In this document: positions 6,292 to 18,608 of the stretch, one piece after another
Layout of the letters: each line of letters opens with the position of its first letter
Position numbering within the stretch: position 1 is the stretch's first letter
Source of the DNA: a virus
Lineage: Duplodnaviria; Heunggongvirae; Uroviricota; Caudoviricetes
Virus record (IMG/VR): IMGVR_UViG_2938709436_000001
Span: 27,717 to 91,716 of that record
Direction: 5' to 3' (one strand)
DNA length: 64,000 nt
Program-made: the position numbers and the translations under genes
Notes under the pieces: model-generated
Databases searched by the model: none
What the model was told of the DNA's origin: nothing
Seen by the model: only the letters and a program-made list of their open reading frames with translations

Positions 6292-6306
6292 GAGTTATCC
6301 CCTCTG

Positions 6307-8196: not shown

Positions 8197-8597
8197 CTCA
8201 ACCCCAGGCTCTCGTTGTAGATATCCACAAAGTCATTGTCCAGACCTTTCTTCTTCCCGTTATCGGAGTTCTGATAAGCGGCCTGTTTCTTGTCAAGCTC
8301 TGACTGCAACTTCGCATTCTTCGCCTTCTCTTCTTCAAGTTGTTTACTCAACTCATCAGAAGCTTTTTGCTGATTGTCTTTGTAGTCATGGTTAGCATTC
8401 TTGTTCTCTTGTTGTTTAGCGACCCACTTATCATCAGTATCCTTCACGCCACGATTATAAGATGCTGTAATCTGGTCGTTATACCAGTGCTTAGTGTAAA
8501 CTGCCCCGGACAACAGGGCAATGGCTAAGAATGCTGCAACTACCAGTTTGGTATTATTCCTGATAAAGGAAATCACCAGTTTAAATATGTCTGTCAT
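8193..8597 (-). CDS. Inner-membrane spanin subunit (Rz-like)
   Basis: N-terminal transmembrane helix (LVVAAFLAIALLSGAVY) followed by a charged coiled-coil region. Immediately followed by the lipoprotein gene. Confidence 0.6.
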   Translation of the reverse strand: MTDIFKLVISFIRNNTKLVVAAFLAIALLSGAVYTKHWYNDQITASYNRGVKDTDDKWVAKQQENKNANHDYKDNQQKASDELSKQLEEEKAKNAKLQSELDKKQAAYQNSDNGKKKGLDNDFVDIYNESLGLR

Positions 8598-10018
8598 GAA
8601 ATATCCCCGTTAGATTCAATAAGCCGCTCTATTTTCAGAAGCGTTTCTTCATCATCTAAAATGTCAATCTGTGCATCGTCATAGGCGATTTTCGTTGGGT
8701 CAAGGACAGTGACCTCCAGAAGCACAGCCCCAGGTTTTGATAATCTGTCTCCCCATCTCCCTGTCTTCCCTTTCTCTCCCCACGACTTGTAAACGTCATA
8801 CGCCTCTTTCTCATCAATATAAACGTTCATGTACTTGAGGAGCTTATCAGCAGGTTTTGTCTCAAGAAGACCAACGGCCTGTTGCGGGTTGTTGGCCTGC
8901 ATCAAATAGAAGTTCTCTGCCGGACAGACACCCCACAGTTTAGAGAAATGTGGACGCCCGGTGTTGATACGTAACCGTTGATACATAGTGAAGATGTTCT
9001 CTGGTTTCAAACCACGATATCTACTGAACTGTCCTTTTTCGGATTCAGTTGCGATAGAGGAGATCAGATAATCCCCTGCTGAATCTAGTTTATCAAATAA
9101 CAGATCAAATGAAAATGGTCTTGTTTCATTGAATAAGTCTTCAACGTTTGTACCATACATCCCGCTCAGATGCGCCTTGGCATCTTCCCACGACTCGATT
9201 TTAAGTCCTGACGCTGCAATACCAAGCTTCATTGTTTCTCGACGAGAGATCGTGTAGCCACGGGCGCGATACTTATCAGAGCGTAGCATACTGATAATGG
9301 GGTAATCAGTGCCTGGGTTAATCACCAGAACTTTCTGAGCTAAGTGTTTAAGGAATCGGCTATCAAACTCCCATTTCTCGCTAGCAAAGCTAAAGCACCC
9401 CATGTTGATCGTAAAGTCGAACTTGTTAAATATTGCCTCTGCATCAGCAAAAACATCAAATGCGATCACCTGCATAACGGGAGAGGATTGATTGGTGAAC
9501 ATGACGCTCTTATCAGTCATCCCTAGATTGTAGATGGTATCTGGATTACTGTCTTCAGAGGCCTTTTGAATGGCCTTGAAAACATTACCGTTACGAGATT
9601 CAAGCAAAGAATAAAGCTTTGAAAGCTGGCTAGCTGAAAGCTCTGTAGGTGGTCGTTCTTTTCTTTCGCATACCAAGGTATTCACGTAGTCTTTATGGCT
9701 ACCCGGCTTGTCAAGCTCAAGGAAGTATACGAATGAACGCTTGGAGTTGCCCCAGTTGTTTGAAGTTGGGGTAAGATCGCTGTCCCCAACCAAGAGTCCA
9801 CGATCAGTCATGTATGCCAGAAAAACCTCAAGATTCTCCCAAGATGGGAAATAGAGATCAAGGTCATTCACTTCCCGGTTAGAGAAAAGTGATGTCAGCG
9901 TACCACCCGCAACACGGGCATCAAGCCGCTTAAGGATCTCATACACACCTTTCGGGATCAGGCTGTTGAGGATGTTGAATTCACGTTGAAAGTCTTCTTT
10001 TGGATAGATATGAAGCAT
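8594..10018 (-). CDS. Hypothetical protein with a Pol-beta-type nucleotidyltransferase-like motif
   Basis: Start chosen at the ATG (MLHIYPKED...) preceded by AAGGAG, rather than the TTG start of the track ORF (8594..10078). The sequence VAGGTLTSLFSNREVNDLDLYF fits the hG[GS]-x(9-13)-Dh[DE]h pattern. Confidence 0.5.
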   Translation of the reverse strand: MLHIYPKEDFQREFNILNSLIPKGVYEILKRLDARVAGGTLTSLFSNREVNDLDLYFPSWENLEVFLAYMTDRGLLVGDSDLTPTSNNWGNSKRSFVYFLELDKPGSHKDYVNTLVCERKERPPTELSASQLSKLYSLLESRNGNVFKAIQKASEDSNPDTIYNLGMTDKSVMFTNQSSPVMQVIAFDVFADAEAIFNKFDFTINMGCFSFASEKWEFDSRFLKHLAQKVLVINPGTDYPIISMLRSDKYRARGYTISRRETMKLGIAASGLKIESWEDAKAHLSGMYGTNVEDLFNETRPFSFDLLFDKLDSAGDYLISSIATESEKGQFSRYRGLKPENIFTMYQRLRINTGRPHFSKLWGVCPAENFYLMQANNPQQAVGLLETKPADKLLKYMNVYIDEKEAYDVYKSWGEKGKTGRWGDRLSKPGAVLLEVTVLDPTKIAYDDAQIDILDDEETLLKIERLIESNGDIS

Positions 10019-10195
10019 GGTTTTCTCCTTTGGTTTAGTTAACCATTGGAGTGTACCAGAAAAAGAAAAGCCCCGCAAGAGCGGGGCGAGGCAAAGGAGA
10101 GGAGATTGAATATTTATTATTATTAGAATATGGTGGGGTGTTCCCTACTGAGGGACTCTTACGGTGCAGGACTGCTCCTGGATACCCCATTGTTT

Positions 10196-10277
10196 TGGAT
10201 GCGTGGATGGGAGTCGAACCCACAATTTTCGGCTTATGAGGCCAACGTGATCTATATATCCGTTTCACTAACACGCA
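10196..10277 (-). tRNA. tRNA with anticodon CAT (Met/Ile2-like), with an enlarged D-loop
   Basis: Minus-strand fold: acceptor TGCGTGT/CCACGCA, anticodon stem TTGGC/GCCGA, loop CTCATAA, T-arm GTGGG-TTCGACT-CCCAT, encoded CCA. Confidence 0.5.
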
Positions 10278-10283
10278 ATTATT

Positions 10284-10359
10284 TGGTGGGGCCGGGTGGA
10301 CTCGAACCACCGACCATCTGCTCTTCAGGCAGGCACTCTACCAACTGAGTTACAACCCC
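10284..10359 (-). tRNA. tRNA-Phe (GAA)
   Basis: Acceptor GGGGTTG/CGGCCCC, D-arm TAACTCAGTTGGTAGAGT, anticodon loop CTGAAGA, T-arm GGTGG-TTCGAGT-CCACC, CCA encoded. Confidence 0.8.
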
Positions 10360-10366
10360 ATAAGAT

Positions 10367-10440
10367 TGGTACTTCCTGGTAGAATCGAACTACCGCAACT
10401 GCCGTGTAAAGACAGGGTTCTACCATTAAACTAAGGAAGC
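10367..10440 (-). tRNA. tRNA-Val (TAC)
   Basis: Acceptor GCTTCCT/AGGAAGT, anticodon stem CTGTC/GGCAG, loop TTTACAC, T-arm GTAGTTCGATTCTAC. Confidence 0.7.
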
Positions 10441-10448
10441 ATTAGAAG

Positions 10449-10525
10449 TGGTGGGCGACAGGGGACTCGAACCCCCAAAATTCGGAATCTAAATCCGACA
10501 CGTATACCAATTCCATCAATCGCCC
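10449..10525 (-). tRNA. tRNA with anticodon TAG (Leu-type anticodon on a short-variable-arm body)
   Basis: Acceptor GGGCGAT/GTCGCCC, perfect anticodon stem TCGGA/TCCGA, loop TTTAGAT, T-arm GGGGG-TTCGAGT-CCCCT. Confidence 0.5.
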
Positions 10526-10560
10526 GTACGCTTGGGTCCGAAGAAATCCAAGCCTTAATT

Positions 10561-10639
10561 TGGTGGAGAATAAGAGATTCGAACTCTTCTGGTATCCTCG
10601 GTGCAAGCGAGGTGTCCACTCCAAGCAGACCCATTCCCC
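10561..10639 (-). tRNA. tRNA-Ala (TGC)
   Basis: Acceptor GGGGAAT/ATTCTCC, D-stem GTCT/GGAC, anticodon stem CCTCG/CGAGG, loop CTTGCAC, T-arm AAGAG-TTCGAAT-CTCTT. Confidence 0.65.
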
Positions 10640-10645
10640 ATATTT

Positions 10646-10722
10646 TGGTGCAGATACAGGGATTCGAACCCCGACCTTTCGCCTTCGTATGACGAAGCTC
10701 TATTCCATTAAGCTATATCCGC
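10646..10722 (-). tRNA. tRNA-Arg (ACG)
   Basis: Acceptor GCGGATA/TATCTGC, D-arm TAGCTTAATGGAATAGAGC, anticodon loop ATACGAA, T-arm CGGGG-TTCGAAT-CCCTG. Confidence 0.7.
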
Positions 10723-11126
10723 AAAATTCCTGCATGTACTTTTCTATGGCAATTGGCACACAGAACCACACACTTACGTATCTCTGCCTTAAATCTCTCA
10801 GAATTGAAAGATACCATTTCAGCAGGAGACATATCTTTTTGCTCAGGGTCTAAATGATGCAGATCCAATGCAACTGGTTCTTTCTCATTACACAATAAGC
10901 AACCTTTCATTCTTTTATACCTTCTCATAAGAAGGCGGTGGAATGTCCTGATTCTTTCTGACCTTTCATTGATAGCCATTTTCCTTTTTGGATTATTGGC
11001 GTATTGGTCATTATCAATCTTCTTTTTACATTCCTTGCAAAAACCTTGATAGCCGTCTTTCTTAGATTTGTTCTTGTAGAACATTTCAAAAGGCTTATCT
11101 TGTTTGCATCGAGGGCAGTGCTTCAT
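10713..11126 (-). CDS. HNH homing endonuclease
   Basis: C-terminal HNH motif LDLHHLDP...VVLCANCHRKVH and N-terminal CPRC zinc-ribbon. Embedded in the tRNA array. Its 3' end overlaps the 5' end of tRNA-Arg by about 10 nt. Confidence 0.8.
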   Translation of the reverse strand: MKHCPRCKQDKPFEMFYKNKSKKDGYQGFCKECKKKIDNDQYANNPKRKMAINERSERIRTFHRLLMRRYKRMKGCLLCNEKEPVALDLHHLDPEQKDMSPAEMVSFNSERFKAEIRKCVVLCANCHRKVHAGILRI

Positions 11127-11145
11127 TAACTTACCTCTTTAAAAT

Positions 11146-11223
11146 TGGTCGGAGCGGCAGGATTCGAACCTGCGACCCAGTGCATCCAAGGCACCCACGC
11201 TGACCAGACTGCGCTACGCTCCG
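11146..11223 (-). tRNA. tRNA-Pro (TGG)
   Basis: Acceptor CGGAGCG/CGCTCCG, D-stem GCGC/GCGT, anticodon stem GGTGC/GCACT, loop CTTGGAT, T-arm GCAGG-TTCGAAT-CCTGC. Confidence 0.8.
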
Positions 11224-11346
11224 AAGGTGCAGAATTTTAATTGTCCCAGACACTGCAACTGGTATTGCTGGCTAGCTAATTAAATGCAGAACTAGAGGTA
11301 TCAACATCCCGAAGGACTTTCCAGTGCTAGTACGACTCTGCAAATT

Positions 11347-11422
11347 TGGCGGAGATACCGGGCATCGAACCCGGAACATACCCGTGACAGGGGTGTATTT
11401 TATCCGTTTAAACTATATCTCC
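11347..11422 (-). tRNA. tRNA-Asp (GTC)
   Basis: Perfect acceptor GGAGATA/TATCTCC, anticodon loop CTGTCAC, T-arm CCGGG-TTCGATG-CCCGG. Confidence 0.7.
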
Positions 11423-11427
11423 AAATT

Positions 11428-11516
11428 TGGCGGTTCCTGAAGGATTCGAACCTTCGTCGGGGATTGCTCCCGGCAGGTTAACAGCCTGCTACCATCGGCC
11501 TCTCGGTCAAAGAACC
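11428..11516 (-). tRNA. Type II (long variable arm) tRNA with a Tyr-like body but anticodon loop CTGTTAA (GTT)
   Basis: Acceptor GGTTCTT/AGGAACC, anticodon stem GCAGG/CCTGC, loop CTGTTAA, 17-nt variable arm, T-arm GAAGGTTCGAATCCTTC identical to E. coli tRNA-Tyr. Confidence 0.6.
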
Positions 11517-11577
11517 ATGTAATTACTTTATCAGTGAAAACAACCTTTTGCAAGAATTATTTTAACTTATTTCAATT

Positions 11578-11680
11578 TGGCGGGATCTGAGGGTTTGCAC
11601 CTCACCTACGGTCCTGGATGCCCGTCATTCTGCTCCGCTGGTTGCCGTCGCATTTCCAGCCTCATTAAACTATCGTCCCG
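11578..11680 (-). other. Degenerate tRNA-like element (acceptor pairing poor)
   Basis: Ends with GATCCCGCCA and contains a D-loop-like TAGTTTAATG and a T-arm-like TGAGG-TGCAAAC-CCTCA. About 103 nt and not foldable into a canonical cloverleaf. Confidence 0.25.
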
Positions 11681-11685
11681 TTGTA

Positions 11686-11772
11686 TGGTGGGTCGGGTGG
11701 GATTCGAACCCAACGATCCCTCGATTAAAAGTCGAGTGCCTTAGACATACGTCGCCGCTTGGCTACCAACCC
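11686..11772 (-). tRNA. tRNA, probably Lys (TTT), with an expanded D region
   Basis: Acceptor GGGTTGG/CCGACCC, perfect anticodon stem CTCGA/TCGAG with loop CTTTTAA, T-arm TTGGG-TTCGAAT-CCCAC. It carries about 10 extra nt between the acceptor and anticodon arms. Confidence 0.45.
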
Positions 11773-11777
11773 ATATT

Positions 11778-11866
11778 TGGAGGAGAGCAACAGAATCGAA
11801 CTGTCACCGTATCGCTACGATGGGACCGGGTTCAAACCGGAGTCTGCACCATGCAGCCTGCTCTCC
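11778..11866 (-). tRNA. tRNA-Ser (TGA), type II
   Basis: Perfect acceptor GGAGAGC/GCTCTCC, anticodon region CCGG-TTTGAAC-CCGG, long variable arm, T-arm GACAG-TTCGATT-CTGTT. Confidence 0.65.
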
Positions 11867-11868
11867 GG

Positions 11869-11959
11869 AGGAAGATGTCAGACTTGAACTGACACACCCC
11901 TTTTCAGGGGCTACTGTCTCTTTAGCAAAGAGATCCCTTACCGTTAGGGTTAATCTTCC
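11869..11959 (-). tRNA. tRNA-Ser (GCT), type II; 3' CCA not encoded
   Basis: Perfect acceptor GGAAGAT/ATCTTCC, anticodon stem TCTCT/AGAGA, loop TTGCTAA, long variable arm, T-arm GTCAG-TTCAAGT-CTGAC. It is followed by TCCG instead of CCA. Confidence 0.65.
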
Positions 11960-12105
11960 AATTGTTCTTTAATTTCTTTGCGAAGATCTGCTTTCTCTTT
12001 CGCACGAGTTATAGGGATTGATTGGATCTCGTCTGCAACACCACAGTTACTACCATGAATCTTGCAACGACCAAACACCTTCTTACAACGCAAAAGTTTT
12101 TGCAT
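11950..12105 (-). CDS. Small Cys-rich hypothetical protein (51 aa)
   Basis: MQKLLRCKKVFGRCKIHGSNCGV... with a strong RBS (GAGGAGATGAT then ATG). Its last ~10 nt overlap the 5' end of tRNA-Ser(GCT). Confidence 0.4.
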   Translation of the reverse strand: MQKLLRCKKVFGRCKIHGSNCGVADEIQSIPITRAKEKADLRKEIKEQLED

Positions 12106-12120
12106 ATCATCTCCTCAAAG

Positions 12121-12212
12121 TGGCGGTGGAAGTAGGATTCGAACCTACGGACCCCTGTGAAGGGGCCGACACCTTTCCAAGGTGCTGTCTTTAACCGCTC
12201 GACCATTCCACC
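12121..12212 (-). tRNA. tRNA-Ser (GGA), type II
   Basis: Perfect acceptor GGTGGAA/TTCCACC, anticodon stem GCACC/GGTGT, loop TTGGAAA, long variable arm, T-arm GTAGG-TTCGAAT-CCTAC. Confidence 0.7.
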
Positions 12213-12296
12213 AATTCGCGGCAGATACGTACAAAAGTTATCCTGGACTAGAACCCATGAAACATGGGGGAAGTTAGAGGTTAACTCGTATCTGCA
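12213..12296 (-). other. tRNA-like structured element (9-bp terminal inverted repeat, D-arm-like stem, no canonical T-arm)
   Basis: GCAGATACG...CGTATCTGC terminal pairing, a D-stem-like AGTT/AACT, and an internal hairpin CCCCCATG-TTTC-ATGGG. Confidence 0.2.
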
Positions 12297-12299
12297 AAT

Positions 12300-12376
12300 T
12301 GGGGTGGCTAGTCGGACTCGAACCGACATAGAACTGCCTCACATGCAGTGTCATTATCCAGTTATGATATAGCCAC
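12300..12376 (-). tRNA. tRNA-His (GTG)
   Basis: Perfect acceptor GTGGCTA/TAGCCAC, D-stem TCAT/ATGA, perfect anticodon stem ACTGC/GCAGT, loop ATGTGAG, T-arm GTCGG-TTCGAGT-CCGAC. Confidence 0.8.
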
Positions 12377-12447
12377 ACATGAGTGTTCTCCTGTTGAAGC
12401 CATCACAGCATAGCTGATCCATCATTCAACCCAAAAACACTCAAATT

Positions 12448-12523
12448 TGGCAGGAAGATAAGGACTCGAACCCTAACTCCGGAGATCAAAGCCCCGTGTG
12501 CTAACCAATTACACCATCCTCCT
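12448..12523 (-). tRNA. tRNA-Gln (TTG)
   Basis: Acceptor AGGAGGA/TCTTCCT, anticodon stem CGGGG/CTCCG, loop CTTTGAT, T-arm TAGGG-TTCGAGT-CCTTA. Confidence 0.65.
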
Positions 12524-12532
12524 AAAAATCAC

Positions 12533-12655
12533 TTAGCTCTGCAACAGAATGAAGCGCCACGAGTCGAACGTGGTAACCGCTCACTTCAAACCCCATTCGC
12601 GTTTGCAACCACTACTTAGAGGTATCAGGCCCGATTTACCTGCTACAGAGCTAAA
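12533..12655 (-). other. tRNA-like remnant: T-arm/acceptor minihelix nested in a 15-bp outer stem
   Basis: Outer inverted repeat TTAGCTCTG.AGCAG/CTG.TGCAGAGCTAA. Inside it, TGAAGTG-AGCGGTTA-CCACG-TTCGACT-CGTGG-CGCTTCA forms an acceptor plus T-arm hairpin. No D or anticodon arms. Confidence 0.25.
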
Positions 12656-12660
12656 TAATT

Positions 12661-12737
12661 TGGCAGGGACCCTGGGATTCGAACCCAGAACCTGCGGATT
12701 TGGAATCCGCTGCACTAGCCAATTGTGCTAAGTCCCT
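12661..12737 (-). tRNA. tRNA-Trp (CCA)
   Basis: Acceptor AGGGACT/GGTCCCT, D-stem GCAC/GTGC, perfect anticodon stem GCGGA/TCCGC, loop TTCCAAA, T-arm CTGGG-TTCGAAT-CCCAG. Confidence 0.8.
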
Positions 12738-12744
12738 ACAAATT

Positions 12745-12819
12745 TGGTACTCCTACCGAGAATCGAACTCGGATTTCCAGATTGAAAGTCTGGCGGCCTG
12801 ACCGTTAGCCGATAGGAGC
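12745..12819 (-). tRNA. tRNA-Glu (TTC)
   Basis: Acceptor GCTCCTA/TAGGAGT, perfect anticodon stem CCAGA/TCTGG, loop CTTTCAA, T-arm CCGAG-TTCGATT-CTCGG. Confidence 0.8.
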
Positions 12820-12825
12820 ATTAAT

Positions 12826-12901
12826 TGGAGCGTTATATCGGATTCGAACCGATGTCACCGACTTGGAAGGACGGGATGCTGGACCACTGCACTAATAACG
12901 C
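12826..12901 (-). tRNA. tRNA-Gly (TCC)
   Basis: Acceptor GCGTTAT/ATAACGC, D-stem GTGC/GCAT, anticodon loop CTTCCAA with one stem mismatch, T-arm ATCGG-TTCGAAT-CCGAT. Confidence 0.65.
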
Positions 12902-12907
12902 TTTGTT

Positions 12908-12982
12908 TGGTGGGAGTAGCTGGGCTTGAACCAGCGACCTAACGGTTATCGACCGTTTGCTCTACCACTGAGCTATACTCCC
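12908..12982 (-). tRNA. tRNA-Ile (GAT)
   Basis: Perfect acceptor GGGAGTA/TACTCCC, D-arm TAGCTCAGTGGTAGAGC, anticodon stem AACGG/CCGTT, loop TCGATAA, T-arm GCTGG-TTCAAGC-CCAGC. Confidence 0.7.
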
Positions 12983-12988
12983 GTTAAT

Positions 12989-13076
12989 TGGTGGGGCGAG
13001 TAGGACTCGAACCTACGAAGGACGCGATGCCAAGGGATTTACAATCCCGCCCGTTTGCCGCTCCGGGAACCGCCCC
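12989..13076 (-). tRNA. tRNA-Tyr (GTA), type II
   Basis: Acceptor GGGGCGG/TCGCCCC, anticodon GGGA-TTGTAAA-TCCC, long variable arm, T-arm GTAGG-TTCGAGT-CCTAC. Confidence 0.75.
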
Positions 13077-13078
13077 AA

Positions 13079-13444
13079 TTAACCTTGTTTGAACTGTACG
13101 ATGTCAGTTGAGAAAGGTTTTGCTACTGGTTTATCAGCGCCCTTTCCGGAACCATCATCGACGTTCTTTGTTTCTTCTTCATTTTCGTTCTCTTCATCGA
13201 AGTAATCAGAAAGCATTTGCTTACCTTCCTCAATAACGAAACGAGCAATATTCTCACGGATGTTGTCTTTAGTATCCTTGTTCATCATAAGATCACGAAG
13301 GACCATATGTGCATCAGGGATCATAGCAATCATCTTTGTTTTCAGATCAAGAATGTTCTTCTCAAGCTGAATTGCGTTAGACTCCTCTTTTAAAGGACGA
13401 CCCTTACCTCTACGACGCTTGGTAAGTGCTTGTTTTGTTGCCAT
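13079..13444 (-). CDS. Hypothetical protein with an N-terminal basic AT-hook-like segment (RRRGKGRP) and an acidic C-terminus
   Basis: Start chosen at the ATG (MATKQALTK...) rather than the upstream GTG of the track ORF (13079..13456). It sits between the tRNA sub-clusters. Confidence 0.5.
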   Translation of the reverse strand: MATKQALTKRRRGKGRPLKEESNAIQLEKNILDLKTKMIAMIPDAHMVLRDLMMNKDTKDNIRENIARFVIEEGKQMLSDYFDEENENEEETKNVDDGSGKGADKPVAKPFSTDIVQFKQG

Positions 13445-13530
13445 AATTAACCCCACTTATTAATGTTATCAGAGTTCAATATCTCTGTCAAGGGTTATTT
13501 TATCATTTATAGCAAAAAATATCAACAACT

Positions 13531-13604
13531 TGGAGCACGGTAGGTGAATCGAACACCTGACATTCGGTTTGCAGCCGAAGCTGTTGCCACTCCAGCAACC
13601 GCGC
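13531..13604 (-). tRNA. tRNA-Cys (GCA)
   Basis: Acceptor GCGCGGT/ACCGTGC, D-stem GCTG/CAGC, perfect anticodon stem TTCGG/CCGAA, loop CTGCAAA, T-arm AGGTG-TTCGATT-CACCT. Confidence 0.8.
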
Positions 13605-13609
13605 ATAAG

Positions 13610-13684
13610 TGGTCGAGGTAGTAGGATTCGAACCTACGTAAAGGAGTTTAGAAGACTCCTGCCTATCCTCTAGACTATACCCCG
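13610..13684 (-). tRNA. tRNA-Arg (TCT)
   Basis: Acceptor CGGGGTA/TACCTCG, perfect anticodon stem GGAGT/ACTCC, loop CTTCTAA, T-arm GTAGG-TTCGAAT-CCTAC. Confidence 0.8.
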
Positions 13685-13687
13685 TTC

Positions 13688-13765
13688 TGGTGCGCCCTCC
13701 CGGACTCGAACCGGGAACCCTGGGAGCTTAACACCCATGCCTCTACCAGATTGGACCAAGAGCGC
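13688..13765 (-). tRNA. tRNA of undetermined identity (atypical anticodon arm; loop region TGTTAAGCT)
   Basis: Acceptor GCGCTCT/AGGGCGC and T-arm CCCGG-TTCGAGT-CCGGG are canonical. The anticodon arm folds only as a 4-bp stem TGGG/CCCA with an apparently 9-nt loop. Confidence 0.5.
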
Positions 13766-13956
13766 AAACATATTTTAAGCTGCATGGTGACTCCACCGAC
13801 CTCTGTTCTCCGCGAACAGCGCTCTACGACCTTAGAACTTCTGTTACAACAACGTGGCCTTTGTCGTTGAAACTCCATTCAGTTAGGCTCATTCTCCTCA
13901 CAGATGATCAGTCCGTGAATCAAATAATCTGAGCTAATGCACTTTAAAATATGTTT

Positions 13957-14065
13957 TGGAGCAGGGTGGTGGAATCTAACCACCTATGTATTCACTCTCC
14001 ACTCCAAGCCGAGAGCTATTTTCAGGTCTGGATGGACCTCGCGGTTGACAAACCGCCTACCCTGC
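13957..14065 (-). other. Unusually long (about 109 nt) tRNA-like gene
   Basis: Perfect 7-bp acceptor GCAGGGT/ACCCTGC, D-stem GCGG/CCGC, T-arm GGTGG-TTAGATT-CCACC. It has a roughly 40-nt extra arm and an ambiguous anticodon loop. Confidence 0.3.
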
Positions 14066-14067
14066 AT

Positions 14068-14141
14068 TGGCTCGCTGAAGTGGATTCGAACCACTGAACC
14101 CCTTGCGCAGAGGGGGCCTTTACCGCTAAGGCTATCAACGA
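14068..14141 (-). tRNA. tRNA with anticodon loop CTGCGCA (GCG?, Arg-like), identity uncertain
   Basis: Acceptor TCGTTGA/TCAGCGA, D-stem GCC/GGC, perfect anticodon stem CCCCT/AGGGG, T-arm AGTGG-TTCGAAT-CCACT. Confidence 0.5.
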
Positions 14142-14147
14142 ATTGTT

Positions 14148-14222
14148 TGGTGCTCCCAGTAGGAATCGAACCCACTTCCTCGGCTTACAAGGCCGCTGCA
14201 TCGCCACTTATGCTTTAGGAGC
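14148..14222 (-). tRNA. tRNA-Thr (TGT)
   Basis: Acceptor GCTCCTA/TGGGAGC, D-stem GCAT/ATGC, anticodon CGGC-CTTGTAA-GCCG, T-arm GTGGG-TTCGATT-CCTAC. Confidence 0.7.
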
Positions 14223-14609
14223 AAGAATGCTGTTTCCGATTAACTGCCCGGAGGTGTGGTTAGCCATATCTTGTGAGCTAAGGACCTTTGACCCAGGATT
14301 TTAATAATCAACGAAATTTTAGCTTTGTGGTTTAGAAGTTTCAAGTTTAAACATTAAGCTTTGAACTTTAATCTTTGAATGTTGAACTTTGAAGTCTTTC
14401 GAATTCGCGATTCGATAATTTCGGCAGAGTTGTGGTCTGCGGAAACATACGTTAAGTATCATCCTATATGATTAAGTTCGAGGCAGTTTAACCTCCGGCC
14501 TCGGTAGAGGCAAGATGTTTCCAACTTCGCTAACCAAAAACAGCATTTTGAAACTTTATCAGTTAACGAGAGGAATTACAAGATGTTTTTCATAATTCAT
14601 CAAGTTATT
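14223..14609. repeat. AT-rich non-coding region with tandem CTTTGAA/GAACTTT-type short repeats (candidate ori or regulatory region)
   Basis: No ORF on either strand. Degenerate direct and inverted repeats: gaagtttcaagttt, aagctttgaacttt, aatctttgaatgtt, gaactttgaagtctttcgaattcgcgattcg. Confidence 0.5.
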
Positions 14610-15257
14610 TTAGATTGATCCCTCAATCTCTACTTCAGTCCGTGCGTTGGACTCGGACAACACAAAGTCAACGTTGGATTTGAAGTCTTCGATCTCTGTT
14701 TCCAGATTTCGGATTACGTCTGCCAGACCCAGTGGGTCAACGATAGACGGTGTGCTCATCAGACGGGTCGGACCTTCTACCGTCTTAATCTGCTCTGGAT
14801 CAGGCGCTTTGTCACGACTGATGTACGGAGCACGGGCCTGTTCCAGCTTGGTTTCGAAGTCAGCGACTTCTTTATCAAGGCGCTTCTGAGCGAAGTTGTA
14901 CTGCGCTTTCAGCTTGGACAGGAGCAGTTCTTTGTAAGCAACTGTGCGCTTGCCTTCAATTGCCTGAGCAACTGTCATCTCTTTACCACCAACGGTGACC
15001 AGAGTTACTGCGTTGGACTGAACAACTTTCGCCTTCAGTTCATCACGTACTGCCAGCAGGTCTTTCAGGCCTTGGAAGTCTGCCTTAGCAGAAGTCTCGA
15101 AGTCAGCAATGCTAACCAGAGAACCTGGGATCGAACGGTGATCTTCCGTCCCTTTTGCGATCTGAACAGTGTTCAACTGGTCGATACGCTTTTCGATCTT
15201 GCCCTCGATCTTGGTCAGAGTTGCCAGAGCGCGGGTTACAGAAATCTTAGTAGACAT
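14610..15257 (-). CDS. Hypothetical coiled-coil protein
   Basis: 215 aa, K/E-rich heptad-like sequence. RBS-like GAGGAGA precedes the ATG. Confidence 0.55.
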   Translation of the reverse strand: MSTKISVTRALATLTKIEGKIEKRIDQLNTVQIAKGTEDHRSIPGSLVSIADFETSAKADFQGLKDLLAVRDELKAKVVQSNAVTLVTVGGKEMTVAQAIEGKRTVAYKELLLSKLKAQYNFAQKRLDKEVADFETKLEQARAPYISRDKAPDPEQIKTVEGPTRLMSTPSIVDPLGLADVIRNLETEIEDFKSNVDFVLSESNARTEVEIEGSI

Positions 15258-15334
15258 ATAATTCTCCTCTCAATGAACTTTAAATTTTAAATGTACTTCA
15301 AATGTTTGCCGACATCCGTGTCGGCACGGCGGTA

Positions 15335-15946
15335 TTAGTTTTTACCAGTGTTAACTACAACACCTTGGCGGTTCGCATCAGCTTTAGCGATTTCCAGACG
15401 GGTTTCGCGTTCTGCTTTCAGGTCTGCACGGGCAGCTTCAAGCTGTTCGGTCAGCATTGCGATACGATCTTTATCTGCCTTGGTATTGGCGTTCAGTTCG
15501 GCAATCGCAACTTTGTGGGCTGATTCCAGATTGGATTTAACAGCGTTCAGTTCGATAGCGGCAGAACGTTTTGCAGCATCGACGGCAGCGGTGATCGCAT
15601 CTTCGTTACTATCCATCGCGACAGACAATTCGTGACGCAGACCATCAACAACACCCGGTTCGATAGCTACAAGACCACGAGCCTTCAGCAGGGCGTTCAG
15701 TACGCCGTCTTCGTTTTCAAGAACCTTGATCTTCAGCTTAGATTTTTCTTCAGCCAGCTTTTCGTTGAACTGGGCTTCGATATTGCCAAGCTCCTGCTGT
15801 TTGAACTGAATTTCCTGACTGATGCGCTCAGAACCTTCAGCCAGAGATTGCAGGTCAGCAACGACCTTACTCAGGCCAGTAGCAGCAGTTGCAACAGCTT
15901 TGGTAGCGCGTTCAGTTACAGAAATTACAGTTTTAGAATCAGACAT
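15335..15946 (-). CDS. Hypothetical coiled-coil protein
   Basis: Start at MSDSKTVISV... preceded by AAGGAG. Ala/Glu/Lys-rich. Confidence 0.55.
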   Translation of the reverse strand: MSDSKTVISVTERATKAVATAATGLSKVVADLQSLAEGSERISQEIQFKQQELGNIEAQFNEKLAEEKSKLKIKVLENEDGVLNALLKARGLVAIEPGVVDGLRHELSVAMDSNEDAITAAVDAAKRSAAIELNAVKSNLESAHKVAIAELNANTKADKDRIAMLTEQLEAARADLKAERETRLEIAKADANRQGVVVNTGKN

Positions 15947-15974
15947 TAAGTTCTCCTTTGCGTAAAATTGAGTT

Positions 15975-16005
15975 GTGATACTACACTTTAAAAATTTCAT
16001 TGTCA
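15975..16005 (-). promoter_or_regulatory. Sigma70-like promoter (minus strand) upstream of the 15335..15946 gene
   Basis: Reverse strand reads TTGACA-atgaaatttttaaagtg-TAGTAT. Confidence 0.45.
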
Positions 16006-16159
16006 AGAAGTTTTTTTGAAACAAGAGCACTTTCGTCCATTTAAGCTATCGCCCTGTGCCATTACGCGAGCCGGGCCAGCAAGAACGGGAGTCGAACCCG
16101 TATCTCTCTCATTCCAAAAAATGGTGGGGCATGAAGGATTCGAACCTTCGACCTTCGGC

Positions 16160-16504
16160 TTAATCGTAATGAACTTCCCTGTGGCAGTTTGCACAAAGTA
16201 GTACACACTTGTCAAGCTCTTTCCTAATTTTATCCCAAGATGCAGTTTGGTACTTACCACCCAAGTGGAAATCTTTTTGCGTAGGATCTAAGTGATGGAA
16301 CTCAAGAGCACCTATGCACTTATCATAACCACAAGAAGAACACTTACCACCCTTATAGTCAACAGCCATTTTCTTAAGGGCCTTTCTCCGTGATGTTACA
16401 GAATCAACAGAGCAAGCTCTGCAACGATAACGACCATCAGCCCTTAATACATAAACCGTATCTCCGTGATACTTACAATTAGAAATTTTCGTTGTTGCCA
16501 TCAT
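16160..16504 (-). CDS. HNH homing endonuclease (paralogue of 10713..11126)
   Basis: LEFHHLDPTQKD...CVLLCANCHREVH plus a Cys-rich N-terminus. Adjacent to orphan tRNA 3' fragments. Confidence 0.8.
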   Translation of the reverse strand: MMATTKISNCKYHGDTVYVLRADGRYRCRACSVDSVTSRRKALKKMAVDYKGGKCSSCGYDKCIGALEFHHLDPTQKDFHLGGKYQTASWDKIRKELDKCVLLCANCHREVHYD

Positions 16505-16720
16505 ACCCTCAGTAAATTCGGTCCGTGTTTTTCAAGACGTTGCACGGAATCGTCACGGTTGCCGCAGCCCTTTATTTTAAGACGCATCGCCGCAGCCAGC
16601 TTCGTCTATCCCCATGCCGGAGGAATTAATTACCGAACTGGGGCGACTGTTTACTACGACCCTGCCGACAATTTTCGACAGCGCCATTTCAACACAAACC
16701 ATCAGTTCAGTAAAGCTTTA

Positions 16721-17050
16721 TTACTTCTTCTTACCTTTCGGCGCTACGGCTTCAACAACCTTAGCGTCTTTAGCTTTACCAGCGCGTTCACGCTTGGTCT
16801 TGCCAGTGCGAACACGGTGTGAGGCAGAAATTACCTGACCACCTTCAACGCGGGAAACGGATTCCCAGATGAATACAACGTTGCCGTCTTCATCACGACG
16901 CTTTTTACGAATGGAAACGGTCTTGGTTACACCGCCCAGACGAACATCGTGTGGTGCAGAGTGAGTCTGCGTTGACTTCGACTCAAACTGGAAAGGCTGT
17001 TTGATTGCGTCGATTGCAGAAACTTTCTTAGTTGCGTTTTTCTTAGCCAT
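16721..17050 (-). CDS. Hypothetical highly basic (Lys-rich) protein
   Basis: 109 aa with K-rich N- and C-termini. Strong RBS GAGGAGAAATACAAC before the ATG. Confidence 0.5.
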   Translation of the reverse strand: MAKKNATKKVSAIDAIKQPFQFESKSTQTHSAPHDVRLGGVTKTVSIRKKRRDEDGNVVFIWESVSRVEGGQVISASHRVRTGKTKRERAGKAKDAKVVEAVAPKGKKK

Positions 17051-17119
17051 GTTGTATTTCTCCTCTATTTGCTAATGTCTTGTTGACGTTGGTAATACTA
17101 ATCTTTCGTACTTCCTTTG

Positions 17120-17287
17120 TCAATCGTTTTTTGAATCTTTTTTCGTTTCTTTATGAAGACCGAGTGAAACATCGTAACGGTCGTACACAGAATTACTATT
17201 CCCTACAGATGAGTCCATTCTGGAATCCCAGTTTGAAGACATGCTTTTGGGCTTACCAATTCCGAAAAAATCATAAATCTTATTCAT
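17120..17287 (-). CDS. Small hypothetical protein (55 aa)
   Basis: MNKIYDFFRIGKPK... with RBS AAGGAGAGACC immediately upstream. It is absent from the ORF track because of its size. Confidence 0.4.
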   Translation of the reverse strand: MNKIYDFFGIGKPKSMSSNWDSRMDSSVGNSNSVYDRYDVSLGLHKETKKDSKND

Positions 17288-17301
17288 GGTCTCTCCTTGT
17301 T

Positions 17302-17378
17302 TGGTAGTTCTGGCAGGGATTGAACCTGCGACCTCTTCCTTATGAGGGAAGCGCTCTAACCAACTAAGCTACAGAACC
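17302..17378 (-). tRNA. tRNA-Met (CAT)
   Basis: Acceptor GGTTCTG/CAGAACT, D-arm TAGCTTAGTTGGTTAGAGC, perfect anticodon stem CTTCC/GGAAG, loop CTCATAA, T-arm GCAGG-TTCAATC-CCTGC. Confidence 0.8.
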
Positions 17379-17401
17379 ATCTCGTCTTGGTGAGGTGAAT
17401 A

Positions 17402-17581
17402 CTACGCACTATCTTTTCTATTGTCAATGTCTTTTTTATCTTTTTCACAAATAAAACAGAACACCTCTCTTTTTGGCCCGATATACTGCTTACCACATTG
17501 CTTGCAAGCCAGGTGGTGGTACATACCACGCAGGCTTTCATGGGGCCAGTCTCTCTCAGAGAACTCAATAAACTGGTCCAT
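17402..17581 (-). CDS. Small C4 zinc-ribbon hypothetical protein (59 aa)
   Basis: MDQFIEFSERDWPHESLRGMYHHLACKQCGKQYIGPKREVFCFICEK... It is in a different frame from the track ORF 17356..17568, which would overlap the tRNA. Confidence 0.35.
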   Translation of the reverse strand: MDQFIEFSERDWPHESLRGMYHHLACKQCGKQYIGPKREVFCFICEKDKKDIDNRKDSA

Positions 17582-17583
17582 TT

Positions 17584-17703
17584 TTAAAACCCCCAGTTTT
17601 CCTCAGAGGAAATACCCTCTCCGAAACCAACGAAAACATCTACGTCTTCAGCTTGGTGAATGCCTTCACCATAACCGATAAATCCGTCAAATTCGTCTTT
17701 CAT
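17584..17703 (-). CDS. Small hypothetical protein (39 aa)
   Basis: MKDEFDGFIGYGEGIHQAEDVDVF... preceded by AAAAGGAGCAAAACG. Confidence 0.3.
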   Translation of the reverse strand: MKDEFDGFIGYGEGIHQAEDVDVFVGFGEGISSEENWGF

Positions 17704-17766
17704 CGTTTTGCTCCTTTTCGTTTTGAACGTGTAATCGCCGCTTCAGCACGGCGCTGCTTGCGGTTT

Positions 17767-18012
17767 TTAGACTGTCCGGAAGATTCGGAGAGCGTACTTG
17801 ATCGTGGAATCACCGTCAACGGGGTAGAAATAGTATAAGCCGCCTTCTTCTCCGAAGGATGCAACATATTTCCAGGCTTCAATGCCGTAGCCAGTCGTAG
17901 CAAAAGCGATATCATCAGCTTCTTCAGTCGCTTCGTCCAGGGTGACGTGATGTGATTCGTGTTCAATATACTCTCCATTATCAGATTTGTGTACAAGTTT
18001 TAATTTAAACAT
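17767..18012 (-). CDS. Hypothetical acidic protein
   Basis: 81 aa MFKLKLVHKSDNGEYIEHESHH... This frame is preferred over the overlapping 17700..17996 ORF because its composition is protein-like. Confidence 0.4.
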   Translation of the reverse strand: MFKLKLVHKSDNGEYIEHESHHVTLDEATEEADDIAFATTGYGIEAWKYVASFGEEGGLYYFYPVDGDSTIKYALRIFRTV

Positions 18013-18091
18013 AATGACCTACCGTTAGTTAATTAAGAAATCGAGTTGTTTCGATAACTTAGATCTTATCAGTGGTCACTATTTTTGTCAA

Positions 18092-18337
18092 TCAAACAAT
18101 GCCAGAGTCCTTGACACCCCTTGAATACTCTGCTATAGCCAGTTTTTGCTCCGGCGTTAGCTCTTCTTCATCCTCTTTCGGATTCTCAATCTCAAGGAGA
18201 TGCTCCTCAAGACCGTCAAGAATGTCTGGCTCCCACGCTTTCTTTTGGTCTATGTGTATAGAAGCACGGTTAAAATCGTTTTTTGCAACGTAATTACGCA
18301 CTGAGATCTGACTCCTTGATCTGTTTTTCGGTTTCAA
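18092..18337 (-). CDS. Hypothetical protein
   Basis: 81 aa ORF with an acidic C-terminus. Confidence 0.35.
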   Translation of the reverse strand: MKPKNRSRSQISVRNYVAKNDFNRASIHIDQKKAWEPDILDGLEEHLLEIENPKEDEEELTPEQKLAIAEYSRGVKDSGIV

Positions 18338-18608
18338 CCAGGTCTACGTTCCCAGTTTTTGTATTCACCCAACGGGTTTCTCCTTTTGTAGCGTGCATTG
18401 TATGTCCACAATCAAAAGAGATGATGCAAACACCCGGCCCGTGGGCTTCGAGATCTGCCTCAAATTCTTCTTTGCAGACTTTACATTCCATCATTACTGG
18501 TCCAAACATCTTAGGCTCCTTAATATAATACGGGTTTGTTGGTGTATTGTTGCACGTCAGGCAATCACGTACTGGCACTTCATGCCATTTACATGGATTT
18601 TCAACCAT
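18294..18608 (-). CDS. Hypothetical Cys-rich (zinc-finger-like) protein
   Basis: Start at MVENPCKWHE... preceded by AAGAGG. It has CxxC motifs (CLTCNN, CKVCKEE). The track ORF extends upstream to 18668. Confidence 0.45.
   Translation of the reverse strand: MVENPCKWHEVPVRDCLTCNNTPTNPYYIKEPKMFGPVMMECKVCKEEFEADLEAHGPGVCIISFDCGHTMHATKGETRWVNTKTGNVDLVETEKQIKESDLSA

Follow-up and report, generated by a model that had tools for sequence, protein, structure and literature searches.

Two free-standing HNH endonuclease genes as probable independent invaders of a 26-gene tRNA array in a Seunavirus phage

The stretch analyzed here, referred to as the window, comprises 64,000 nt of a Caudoviricetes virus record (IMG/VR IMGVR_UViG_2938709436_000001, positions 27,717 to 91,716), and contains a long array of tRNA genes in which two HNH endonuclease genes, HNH1 (137 aa) and HNH2 (114 aa), are embedded. 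Both open reading frames (ORFs) lie exactly where an earlier note, made from the sequence alone, had placed them (10713 to 11126 and 16160 to 16504). The same note had counted about 26 tRNA genes on the minus strand by manual folding, a count that was borne out by ARAGORN and Rfam. ARAGORN called 24 tRNA genes across the whole window, all on the minus strand between 10284 and 17378, and a permissive Rfam scan covering 9500 to 18500 added two more, a CAU tRNA at 10199 to 10277 (45 bits) and tRNA-Lys(UUU) at 11689 to 11772 (50.5 bits), for a total of 26. The Rfam tRNA model matched 22 of the 24 ARAGORN genes directly, with tRNA-Ser(UGA) additionally recovered through the clan model tRNA-Sec. Matches to the T-loop motif GTTCRANTC number 29 in the window, compared to 6.0 ± 2.6 in shuffled sequences, and 26 of the 29 fall on the minus strand between 10211 and 16145. 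The array is not a chance pattern.

The closest genomes to this region belong to Seunavirus, within the Vequintavirinae. Enterobacter phage EC152 (PP681140) had 97.4% nucleotide identity across 90% of the length, and Cronobacter phage GAP31 (NC_019400) had 96.8% identity. Only three records covered at least 80% of the region, all of them Seunavirus, and every best match was to Vequintavirinae. Based on these matches, we assign the window to an enterobacterial Seunavirus myophage. The T5-like or Felix O1-like affiliation proposed in the earlier note did not hold at the genome level, where no such similarity to Tequintavirus or Felixounavirus appeared; nucleotide matches to Felix O1-like phages were confined to ~160 to 200 nt of each HNH core, at ~70% identity. 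ARAGORN recovered the window's 24 tRNAs from EC152 in unchanged order, plus tRNA-Lys(CUU). EC152, GAP31, and Escherichia phage LNA4 share with the window its tRNAs and their order, the flanking ORFs, and the promoters, but all three lack HNH1 and HNH2 and carry an intact tRNA-Lys(CUU), and the tRNA-Arg(ACG) and tRNA-Ala alleles of the window are foreign relative to theirs. The genomes thus form a natural before-and-after pair, identical over kilobases of array and differing mainly by two nuclease cassettes and short trails of foreign tRNA sequence. The features at the two insertion sites are as follows.

10561 to 10639, minus strand: tRNA-Ala(UGC), within the foreign patch downstream of HNH1 (ARAGORN; Rfam, 38 bits)
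10569 to 10723, unstranded: foreign patch 3′ of HNH1, a putative co-conversion tract (comparison with EC152)
10646 to 10722, minus strand: tRNA-Arg(ACG), chimeric allele (ARAGORN; Rfam, 56.9 bits)
10713 to 11126, minus strand: HNH1, 137 aa (ORF; phrog_2255, E = 6.5e-40)
11146 to 11223, minus strand: tRNA-Pro(UGG), same as in EC152 up to the insertion junction (ARAGORN; Rfam)
16008 to 16133, unstranded: dense foreign patch 3′ of HNH2 (comparison with EC152)
16122 to 16163, minus strand: remnant 3′ half of tRNA-Lys(CUU), 42 nt, anticodon loop to CCA (match to EC152 and GAP31)
16160 to 16504, minus strand: HNH2, 114 aa (ORF; phrog_2255, E = 1.1e-31; Pfam HNH, E = 4.8e-4)
16503 to 16509, minus strand: leftover 5′ acceptor strand of tRNA-Lys(CUU), ~6 to 7 nt, AGGGTAT (alignment with EC152 and LNA4)

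HNH1 occupies the spacer between tRNA-Pro and tRNA-Arg(ACG). This gap is ~8 nt in EC152 and GAP31, from which alignment of the locus showed HNH1 to be absent, compared to ~420 nt holding HNH1 in the window (pairwise BLAST breakpoints against EC152 at 10728 and 11142). The gene has an AGAGG Shine-Dalgarno sequence upstream, and its final 10 nt, TAG stop included, lie inside the 5′ end of tRNA-Arg(ACG). Directly 3′ of HNH1, a patch of 155 bp (10569 to 10723) spanning most of tRNA-Arg(ACG) and tRNA-Ala(UGC) has 51 differences from EC152, with 78% identity to EC152 and GAP31 versus 85 to 93% to other Vequintavirinae. There were no differences from EC152 in 10100 to 10500 or in 11142 to 13200. The window's tRNA-Arg(ACG) is itself a mosaic: its 5′ two-thirds are Mydovirus-like and unlike EC152, and its T-arm and 3′ acceptor strand are those of the EC152 allele. 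Only one genomic context of HNH1 is on record.

HNH2 lies within a tRNA gene. EC152, GAP31, LNA4, NINP13076, and the Mydovirus KpS8 carry an intact 76-nt tRNA-Lys(CUU) at this position, and HNH2 is missing from the first three, whose backbones are 97% identical to the window (breakpoints against EC152 by pairwise BLAST, 16163 and 16503). The window reads, in order, the first 6 to 7 nt of tRNA-Lys(CUU), the HNH2 start codons, a 339-nt ORF, and the tRNA 3′ half. The 42-nt remnant matches the EC152 gene at 98% and the GAP31 gene at 100%, and the TAA stop of HNH2 (16160 to 16162) is U36-A37-A38 of the former anticodon loop. Positions 8 to 34 of the tRNA have been replaced by HNH2, and no sequence within 3 mismatches of them was found anywhere in the window. 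At the other end of the gene, the Shine-Dalgarno sequence, GAGG, shares nucleotides with what is left of the tRNA 5′ end. A second ATG at 16501 gives a 113-aa form, which is on record; an exact look-up of the 114-aa form gave nothing. The dense patch 3′ of HNH2 (16008 to 16133) is LNA4/Mydovirus-like, 96 to 98% identical to LNA4 and to Klebsiella Mydovirus phages, and sparser differences from EC152 extend from it down to 14838. A short foreign patch (16509 to 16549) lies on the opposite side of HNH2.

Group I introns in cyanobacterial tRNA genes offer a model for another explanation of this layout, in which the anticodon loop of tRNA-Lys(CUU) would hold a self-splicing group I intron with HNH2 as its ORF, and splicing would restore the tRNA. 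The 3′ junction does fall in the anticodon loop, with the entire tRNA 3′ half kept, and HNH genes inside group I introns have been documented in the related Certrevirus phage CB7 (PMC7344957), which provides a precedent. However, the 5′ exon would be only ~7 nt long, the D-arm and the 5′ anticodon-stem strand are absent with no copy at ≤3 mismatches in the window, and the 339-nt insert is nearly all ORF, leaving no space for a ribozyme core. Rfam found no group I intron or tRNA in 15980 to 16620 even at E ≤ 10, and neither ARAGORN nor Rfam called a tRNA at the remnant. We therefore rejected the intron or split-tRNA reading, which we consider extremely improbable, and conclude that tRNA-Lys(CUU) was destroyed rather than split by an intron. 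It is the sole tRNA actually lost in the array. Two annotations at this site were set aside: a "tRNA-Lys(ctt)" call within the HNH2 ORF from a low-threshold ARAGORN run (-ps80) was treated as a false positive with a poor fold, and the "HNH endonuclease" labels at the tRNA-Lys site of Klebsiella phage K18PH07C1 (OY978784) are a misannotation, as tRNA-Lys(CUU) is intact there and the frame is full of stops.

The two HNH proteins resemble each other over their C-terminal 47 residues only (49% identity, E = 2e-14), and both match phrog_2255, "HNH endonuclease" (E values in the list above). No third HNH copy was found in the window. The earlier note had called the two genes paralogous, a term that fits loosely for the shared C-terminal similarity but not for their origin. 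HNH1 is 53% identical to Felix O1 ORF47 over all 137 aa, and HNH2 is 64% identical to Felix O1 ORF44 over 77 aa; since either gene resembles its own Felix O1 counterpart more than it resembles the other HNH gene, the two were most likely acquired separately and not duplicated here. Across 17 relatives including both window proteins, 10 residues are invariant (HNH1 numbering): C76, C79, H90, H91, K97, C123, N125, C126, H127, and H131. These include the His…Asn…His motif (H90/H91, N125, and H131), which aligns with the HNH regions of the LtrA En domain and McrA, and the two CxxC pairs flanking it (C76/C79 and C123/C126), a structural zinc site. The family profile matched McrA and the En/HNH domain of the group II intron protein LtrA (E = 1.1e-4). 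In phmmer searches of the single proteins against the PDB, HNH1 had no match and HNH2 matched McrA only marginally. Domain matches were of the HNH type only, with no GIY-YIG domain in either protein.

Evidence of recent movement comes from HNH2. The exact protein was found on contigs from three independent sequencing runs or samples, among which the cassette had 0 differences in 342 nt and identical tRNA-Lys junctions. Its downstream flank is EC152-type in one contig (L029), including an extra tRNA-like element, versus LNA4-type in the two others (L028 and L030). An identical cassette on flanks differing by >25% points to recent movement between genomes by recombination. The foreign patches next to the insertions are one-sided, are 25 to 33% divergent, and abut mismatch-free stretches. 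Both positions have also received other HNH genes. In Iguana_ER37 (WNV45583), an HNH gene lies between tRNA-Pro and tRNA-Arg, and in Klebsiella phage VLCpiM5a (UVX30014), one lies inside tRNA-Lys(CUU). These are the same two positions in Vequintavirinae arrays, but the genes differ: the Iguana_ER37 HNH is unrelated to HNH1, and the VLCpiM5a HNH is 41% identical to HNH2 at the C-terminus only, is 49.6% identical to HNH1, and has junctions unlike those of HNH2, keeping the tRNA only from the T-loop onward. Different HNH genes at both positions mark these as recurrent landing sites.

These observations also bear on the suggestion that both HNH genes are relics, decayed or domesticated, that have stopped homing, in which case the patches would be ordinary recombination mosaicism and the nucleases would mark exchange boundaries. 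Boundaries of genetic exchange between phages are known to carry nuclease genes (PMC10448857), as this suggestion would have it. Whole-gene insertions and deletions occur in phage tRNA arrays even without homing endonuclease genes (HEGs), as between GAP31 and EC152, whose arrays differ in tRNA-His and a pseudo-tRNA, and HNH activity here is inferred from sequence. Nevertheless, the catalytic and zinc-binding residues are all intact in both proteins, both ORFs are full length with Shine-Dalgarno sequences, and the nucleotide identity of HNH2 across three samples on flanks >25% different indicates very recent spread rather than decay. We consider the relic explanation unlikely, if less so than the intron.

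Several further observations concern the tRNA-Lys(CUU) site. The extra, unannotated ~100-nt tRNA-like element lies directly after tRNA-Lys(CUU) in EC152 (6200 to 6297 of its locus), GAP31, and contig L029; it has a T-arm and a CCA end, and it is absent from the window and LNA4. The crossover for this element appears to lie in shared T-arm/CCA sequence. Position 33, almost universally U in tRNAs, is U in the tRNA-Lys(CUU) of EC152 and NINP13076, A in that of LNA4 (an UNVERIFIED record), and C in that of KpS8; this variation could reflect relaxed selection, nuclease escape, or sequencing error. Directly after the tRNA-Lys remnant in the window is a conserved element of ~115 nt (16007 to 16121, minus strand), closed by a 14-bp stem and carrying, in order, a T-arm-like, a middle, and a D-arm-like hairpin. 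Its layout resembles a permuted tRNA or a Y-RNA-like module, with a weak Rfam match to YrlA (19 bits, E = 0.27), and three of its pairs have compensatory changes, among only three sequence types compared.

Neither HNH1 nor HNH2 has a promoter-like site directly upstream. The transcription signals listed below include promoter-like sites that are consensus matches only.

17399 to 17427, minus strand: promoter-like TTGACA-N17-TAGTAT, upstream of tRNA-Met (consensus match)
17095 to 17123, minus strand: promoter-like TTGACA-N17-TAGTAT, upstream of the unit of a 109-aa ORF, HNH2, and the tRNA-Lys remnant (consensus match)
14316 to 14344, minus strand: promoter-like TTGAAA-N17-TAAAAT, upstream of tRNA-Thr, at the start of the main array with HNH1 (consensus match)
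10070 to 10087, minus strand: terminator-like GC hairpin followed by a T run, past the last tRNA (sequence)

HNH1 falls within a unit running from the promoter-like site at 14344 or one at 13491 to the terminator at 10070 to 10087, and HNH2 lies downstream of the 109-aa ORF, itself downstream of the promoter-like site at 17123. Since neither has a promoter of its own, each HEG is probably expressed as part of a tRNA precursor transcript. TTGACA-N17-TAGTAT also occurs at 15978 to 16006 (minus strand), upstream of a 203-aa ORF, so that three sites share the same hexamers and spacing.

Taken together, we consider it probable (roughly 80%) that a Seunavirus array of 26 tRNA genes was invaded independently by two free-standing HNH HEGs that work in a manner similar to that of SegB. 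In phage T4, SegB is a HEG in the tRNA cluster that recognizes a T-psi-C motif and co-converts its flanks; the segB transcript is part of the tRNA precursor, and when the downstream tRNA-Arg matures, the stop codon is split from the ORF (PMC2330249). The suggestion in the earlier note that homing endonucleases reshaped the array is thus upheld as far as the array is concerned, given that both genes are absent from the 97%-identical EC152 and GAP31, that tRNA-Lys(CUU) was destroyed, and that foreign patches are present, but it does not extend to a T5-like or Felix O1-like genome. Likewise, the analogy with Felix O1 is apt for the genes, whose counterparts ORF47 (53%) and ORF44 (64%) lie inside a tRNA array and abut a tRNA 5′ end, and not for the genome.

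In the proposed explanation, the 26 minus-strand tRNA genes would be transcribed from a few sigma-70-type promoters, with transcription ending at the terminator near 10070. During co-infection, each enzyme would cut tRNA-gene DNA of a related phage lacking the HEG, and repair of the double-strand break from the HEG-carrying genome would copy over both the HEG and the sequence from the cut to the insertion point, leaving a one-sided patch of donor sequence. HNH1 landed in the 8-nt spacer between tRNA-Pro and tRNA-Arg(ACG), bringing with it foreign alleles of most of tRNA-Arg and tRNA-Ala, and HNH2 landed inside tRNA-Lys(CUU), killing that gene and likely removing the target site as well. Loss of tRNA-Lys(CUU) may be tolerable because tRNA-Lys(UUU) remains. 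With the HNH1 stop codon inside tRNA-Arg, 5′ maturation of tRNA-Arg should detach the stop from the ORF, and removal of the stop codon should keep expression of the nuclease low, as proposed for T4 segB.

Some results weigh against this interpretation. Both proteins score below the Pfam PF01844 gathering threshold of 21.4 bits (HNH2, 20.7; HNH1, 13.7), which we attribute to divergence from the Pfam seed and not to absence of the domain because the phrog_2255 matches have E values of 1e-31 to 1e-40. The single-sequence AlphaFold model of HNH1 had a pLDDT (predicted local distance difference test) score of 54.7, and of <50 across the HNH region, which is too low to confirm a beta-beta-alpha-metal fold. 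Among 50,697 phage genomes, the best protein identities were only 57% (HNH1) and 68% (HNH2), so that the cassette donors are not in this collection, to which both alleles, judged by these matches, are new. The replacement of 27 nt within a gene is not expected from precise homing into an intergenic site, suggesting that the original HNH2 insertion involved some illegitimate event. Lastly, the enzymes could be inactive relics, and ordinary homologous recombination between mosaic phages could yield foreign patches beside an insert.

Relatives of these genes recur in tRNA arrays of other phages. Our sample comprised 26 loci, 11 from GenBank phages and 15 from IMG/VR. Besides Felix O1, ten GenBank phages were taken from tblastn match lists: an Aeromonas Lahexavirus, a Pseudomonas phage, Certrevirus CR3 and DU_PP_I, an Acinetobacter Saclayvirus, a Bacillus Bastillevirus, the crAss-like phage DAC15, a Vibrio Demerecviridae phage, the jumbo phage Muenster, and Lak-C1. 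The homologue was inside a tRNA array and on the tRNA strand in 11/11 of these other GenBank phages; in the Felix O1 array, ORF44 overlaps tRNA-Ile by 7 nt and ORF47 stops 1 nt before tRNA-Thr. Among the 15 IMG/VR loci, 11 had tRNAs ≤1.5 kb from the match, and in 7 a same-strand tRNA starts 0 to 61 nt past the match end. Given that tRNA arrays make up a few percent of these genomes, the association is far beyond chance. HNH genes have also been noted as core genes of viral tRNA clusters (PMC6409571).

A tentative extension, to which we give somewhat less than even odds, is that the phrog_2255 HNH lineage is a tRNA-array specialist that recognizes tRNA-gene DNA and moves between unrelated phage families, carrying or overwriting tRNA genes as it goes. 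The families involved may include Ounavirinae, Vequintavirinae, Demerecviridae, Herelleviridae, crAss-like phages, and jumbo phages. ORFs of this lineage would characteristically end inside or at the next tRNA, and processing of that tRNA would throttle expression of the nuclease. The retained tRNA-Lys 3′ half and the 5′ acceptor strand overlapping the HNH2 ribosome-binding site might then act as a functional processing signal instead of being debris. If so, the phrog_2255 lineage would be the HNH counterpart of the GIY-YIG SegB.

The same association raises the question of whether the HNH proteins instead serve the phage by cutting arrays to amplify or reshuffle tRNA genes under pressure from tRNA-cleaving defenses. 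Across phages, SegB homologues show a statistical association with tRNAs, and in T6, SegB, which belongs to a different family, amplifies tRNA-Tyr and thereby allows escape from the tRNA-cleaving defense Septu (2026 study; PMC13096335). The HNH lineage is likewise tied to tRNA arrays across many phage groups. Even so, a search of the array turned up no tandemly duplicated tRNA segments, its direct repeats being tRNA 3′ ends only; one of the two insertions destroyed a tRNA instead of amplifying it; and the HNH genes are dispensable in 97%-identical phages. We regard a benefit to the phage as quite improbable here, and we favor homing by selfish HEGs.

The remaining tRNA genes of the array are listed below.

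10196 to 10277, minus strand: tRNA with anticodon CAU, Met or Ile2 type (Rfam, 45 bits; loop CUCAUAA; missed by ARAGORN default; annotated as tRNA-Met in GAP31)
10284 to 10359, minus strand: tRNA-Phe(GAA) (ARAGORN; Rfam, 66.2 bits)
10367 to 10440, minus strand: tRNA-Val(UAC) (ARAGORN; Rfam, 60.4 bits)
10449 to 10525, minus strand: tRNA-Leu(UAG), 77 nt, 5-nt variable loop (ARAGORN; Rfam, 50.8 bits)
11347 to 11422, minus strand: tRNA-Asp(GUC) (ARAGORN; Rfam)
11428 to 11516, minus strand: tRNA-Asn(GUU), 89 nt, long class-II-like variable arm (ARAGORN; Rfam, 51.2 bits)
11686 to 11772, minus strand: tRNA-Lys(UUU), D-loop of ~20 nt (Rfam, 50.5 bits; anticodon loop CUUUUAA; fold; missed by ARAGORN default)
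11778 to 11866, minus strand: tRNA-Ser(UGA) (ARAGORN; best Rfam match tRNA-Sec, 34.1 bits)
11867 to 11959, minus strand: tRNA-Ser(GCU) (ARAGORN; Rfam, 47.7 bits)
12121 to 12212, minus strand: tRNA-Ser(GGA) (ARAGORN; Rfam, 56.8 bits)
12300 to 12376, minus strand: tRNA-His(GUG) (ARAGORN; Rfam)
12448 to 12523, minus strand: tRNA-Gln(UUG) (ARAGORN; Rfam)
12661 to 12737, minus strand: tRNA-Trp(CCA) (ARAGORN; Rfam)
12745 to 12819, minus strand: tRNA-Glu(UUC) (ARAGORN; Rfam)
12826 to 12901, minus strand: tRNA-Gly(UCC) (ARAGORN; Rfam)
12908 to 12982, minus strand: tRNA-Ile(GAU) (ARAGORN; Rfam)
12989 to 13076, minus strand: tRNA-Tyr(GUA) (ARAGORN; Rfam, 33.7 bits)
13531 to 13604, minus strand: tRNA-Cys(GCA) (ARAGORN; Rfam)
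13610 to 13684, minus strand: tRNA-Arg(UCU) (ARAGORN; Rfam)
13688 to 13765, minus strand: tRNA-Leu(UAA), 78 nt, short variable loop (ARAGORN; Rfam, 40.8 bits)
14068 to 14141, minus strand: tRNA-Arg(GCG), doubtful (ARAGORN only; clean cloverleaf fold)
14148 to 14222, minus strand: tRNA-Thr(UGU) (ARAGORN; Rfam)
17302 to 17378, minus strand: tRNA-Met(CAU) (ARAGORN; Rfam, 72.6 bits)

The isotypes read by hand in the earlier note needed only small corrections: Arg tRNAs number three (ACG, UCU, and GCG) instead of two, and Leu (UAG and UAA), Asn (GUU), and Lys (UUU) are present. The latter had been thought missing or ambiguous; they have odd structures and lie at a distance from both HNH genes. At the low threshold (-ps80), ARAGORN made 32 calls, several of them on the plus strand, and the extra ones were discarded as false positives with poor folds.

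Several of these tRNAs are structurally unusual. Both Leu tRNAs are 77 to 78 nt long with a 5-nt variable loop in place of the long variable arm that tRNA-Leu typically has in bacteria and in T4; the annotations of Felix O1, LAh_6, and Bacillus phage Anthony include Leu tRNAs of similarly short length. Conversely, the variable arm of tRNA-Asn(GUU) is a 4-bp stem plus loop, and its discriminator is G73; this tRNA is conserved in both EC152 and GAP31. A short variable loop is the norm for bacterial tRNA-Asn; since long arms typify Ser, Leu, and Tyr tRNAs, the charging identity of tRNA-Asn(GUU) is uncertain. The ~20-nt D-loop of tRNA-Lys(UUU) may hold a mini-hairpin, and the CAU tRNA at 10196 to 10277 has a 14-nt D-loop, a U1-A72 pair, a U7/C66 mismatch, and discriminator U73. 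tRNA-Arg(GCG) had no Rfam tRNA match even at E ≤ 10; it has C37, lacks nucleotide 26, and was not called by the EC152 annotators. A G3:U70 pair, the classic identity element of alanyl-tRNA synthetase, is present in three non-alanine tRNAs, Arg(ACG), Arg(UCU), and Cys(GCA), for which a dual identity is possible. In tRNA-Arg(ACG), this pair came with the foreign 5′ segment, as EC152 has A3-U70.

Other structured elements lie between and beside the tRNAs. Three inter-tRNA spacers on the minus strand (12524 to 12660, 12213 to 12299, and 12377 to 12447) fold far better than shuffled controls (z = −5.0, −5.2, and −3.9, respectively); each has a long closing stem, and the first also has a T-arm-like hairpin. 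The three are reminiscent of "species I/II", stable RNAs from the tRNA cluster of T4. Two tRNA-like units on the minus strand, at 13957 to 14066 and ~11578 to 11680, end in CCA followed by the usual AATT trailer. The former scored 23.7 bits on the tRNA-Sec model with a large insertion, and the latter combines a degenerate T-arm with an acceptor-like stem. Both could be pseudo-tRNAs, or else small RNAs of a novel kind. Adjoining the array downstream is a 474-aa ORF (8594 to 10018, minus strand) with a precomputed Pfam match to PF26128 (Gad2) that was not reproduced by a fresh hmmscan at E ≤ 0.01. A test for homology between this ORF and the 471-aa "RNA-binding protein" beside the Felix O1 array found none.

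Phage tRNA arrays are now viewed as tools for codon supply and for escape from tRNA-cutting host defenses. The window indicates that homing endonucleases can both import tRNA alleles into such arrays and delete tRNA genes from them. The concept itself is not new, and HEG reshaping of a tRNA array is an already known kind of selfish-gene behavior. New here are the pair of alleles, a clear case of a HEG overwriting a tRNA, and the breadth of the HNH lineage's association with tRNA arrays, which extends the array-endonuclease link recently published for the GIY-YIG SegB to an HNH lineage of many phage groups.

Among known systems, the closest counterparts by gene are Felix O1 ORF47 and ORF44, which are of the same HNH lineage as HNH1 and HNH2, lie on the tRNA strand, and overlap or abut the next tRNA with their ORF ends. 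In contrast to the window, Felix O1 belongs to the Ounavirinae, has other neighboring tRNAs, and shares no nucleotide similarity beyond the HNH core; ORF44 also has an additional N-terminal region that HNH2 lacks. In mode of residence, HNH1 and HNH2 resemble T4 SegB and T5 F-TflI/II/IV, which are free-standing HEGs between tRNA genes and absent from close relatives, the T5 F-Tfl enzymes being cited as a second case of HEGs in phage tRNA clusters (PMC2330249). Flanking tRNA markers are co-converted with them, and HNH1 has the same stop-in-tRNA-Arg layout as segB. SegB is, however, a GIY-YIG rather than an HNH enzyme, and its activity and homing have been demonstrated experimentally, compared to the predicted activity of HNH1 and HNH2. 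SegB also did not overwrite a tRNA gene, as HNH2 did.

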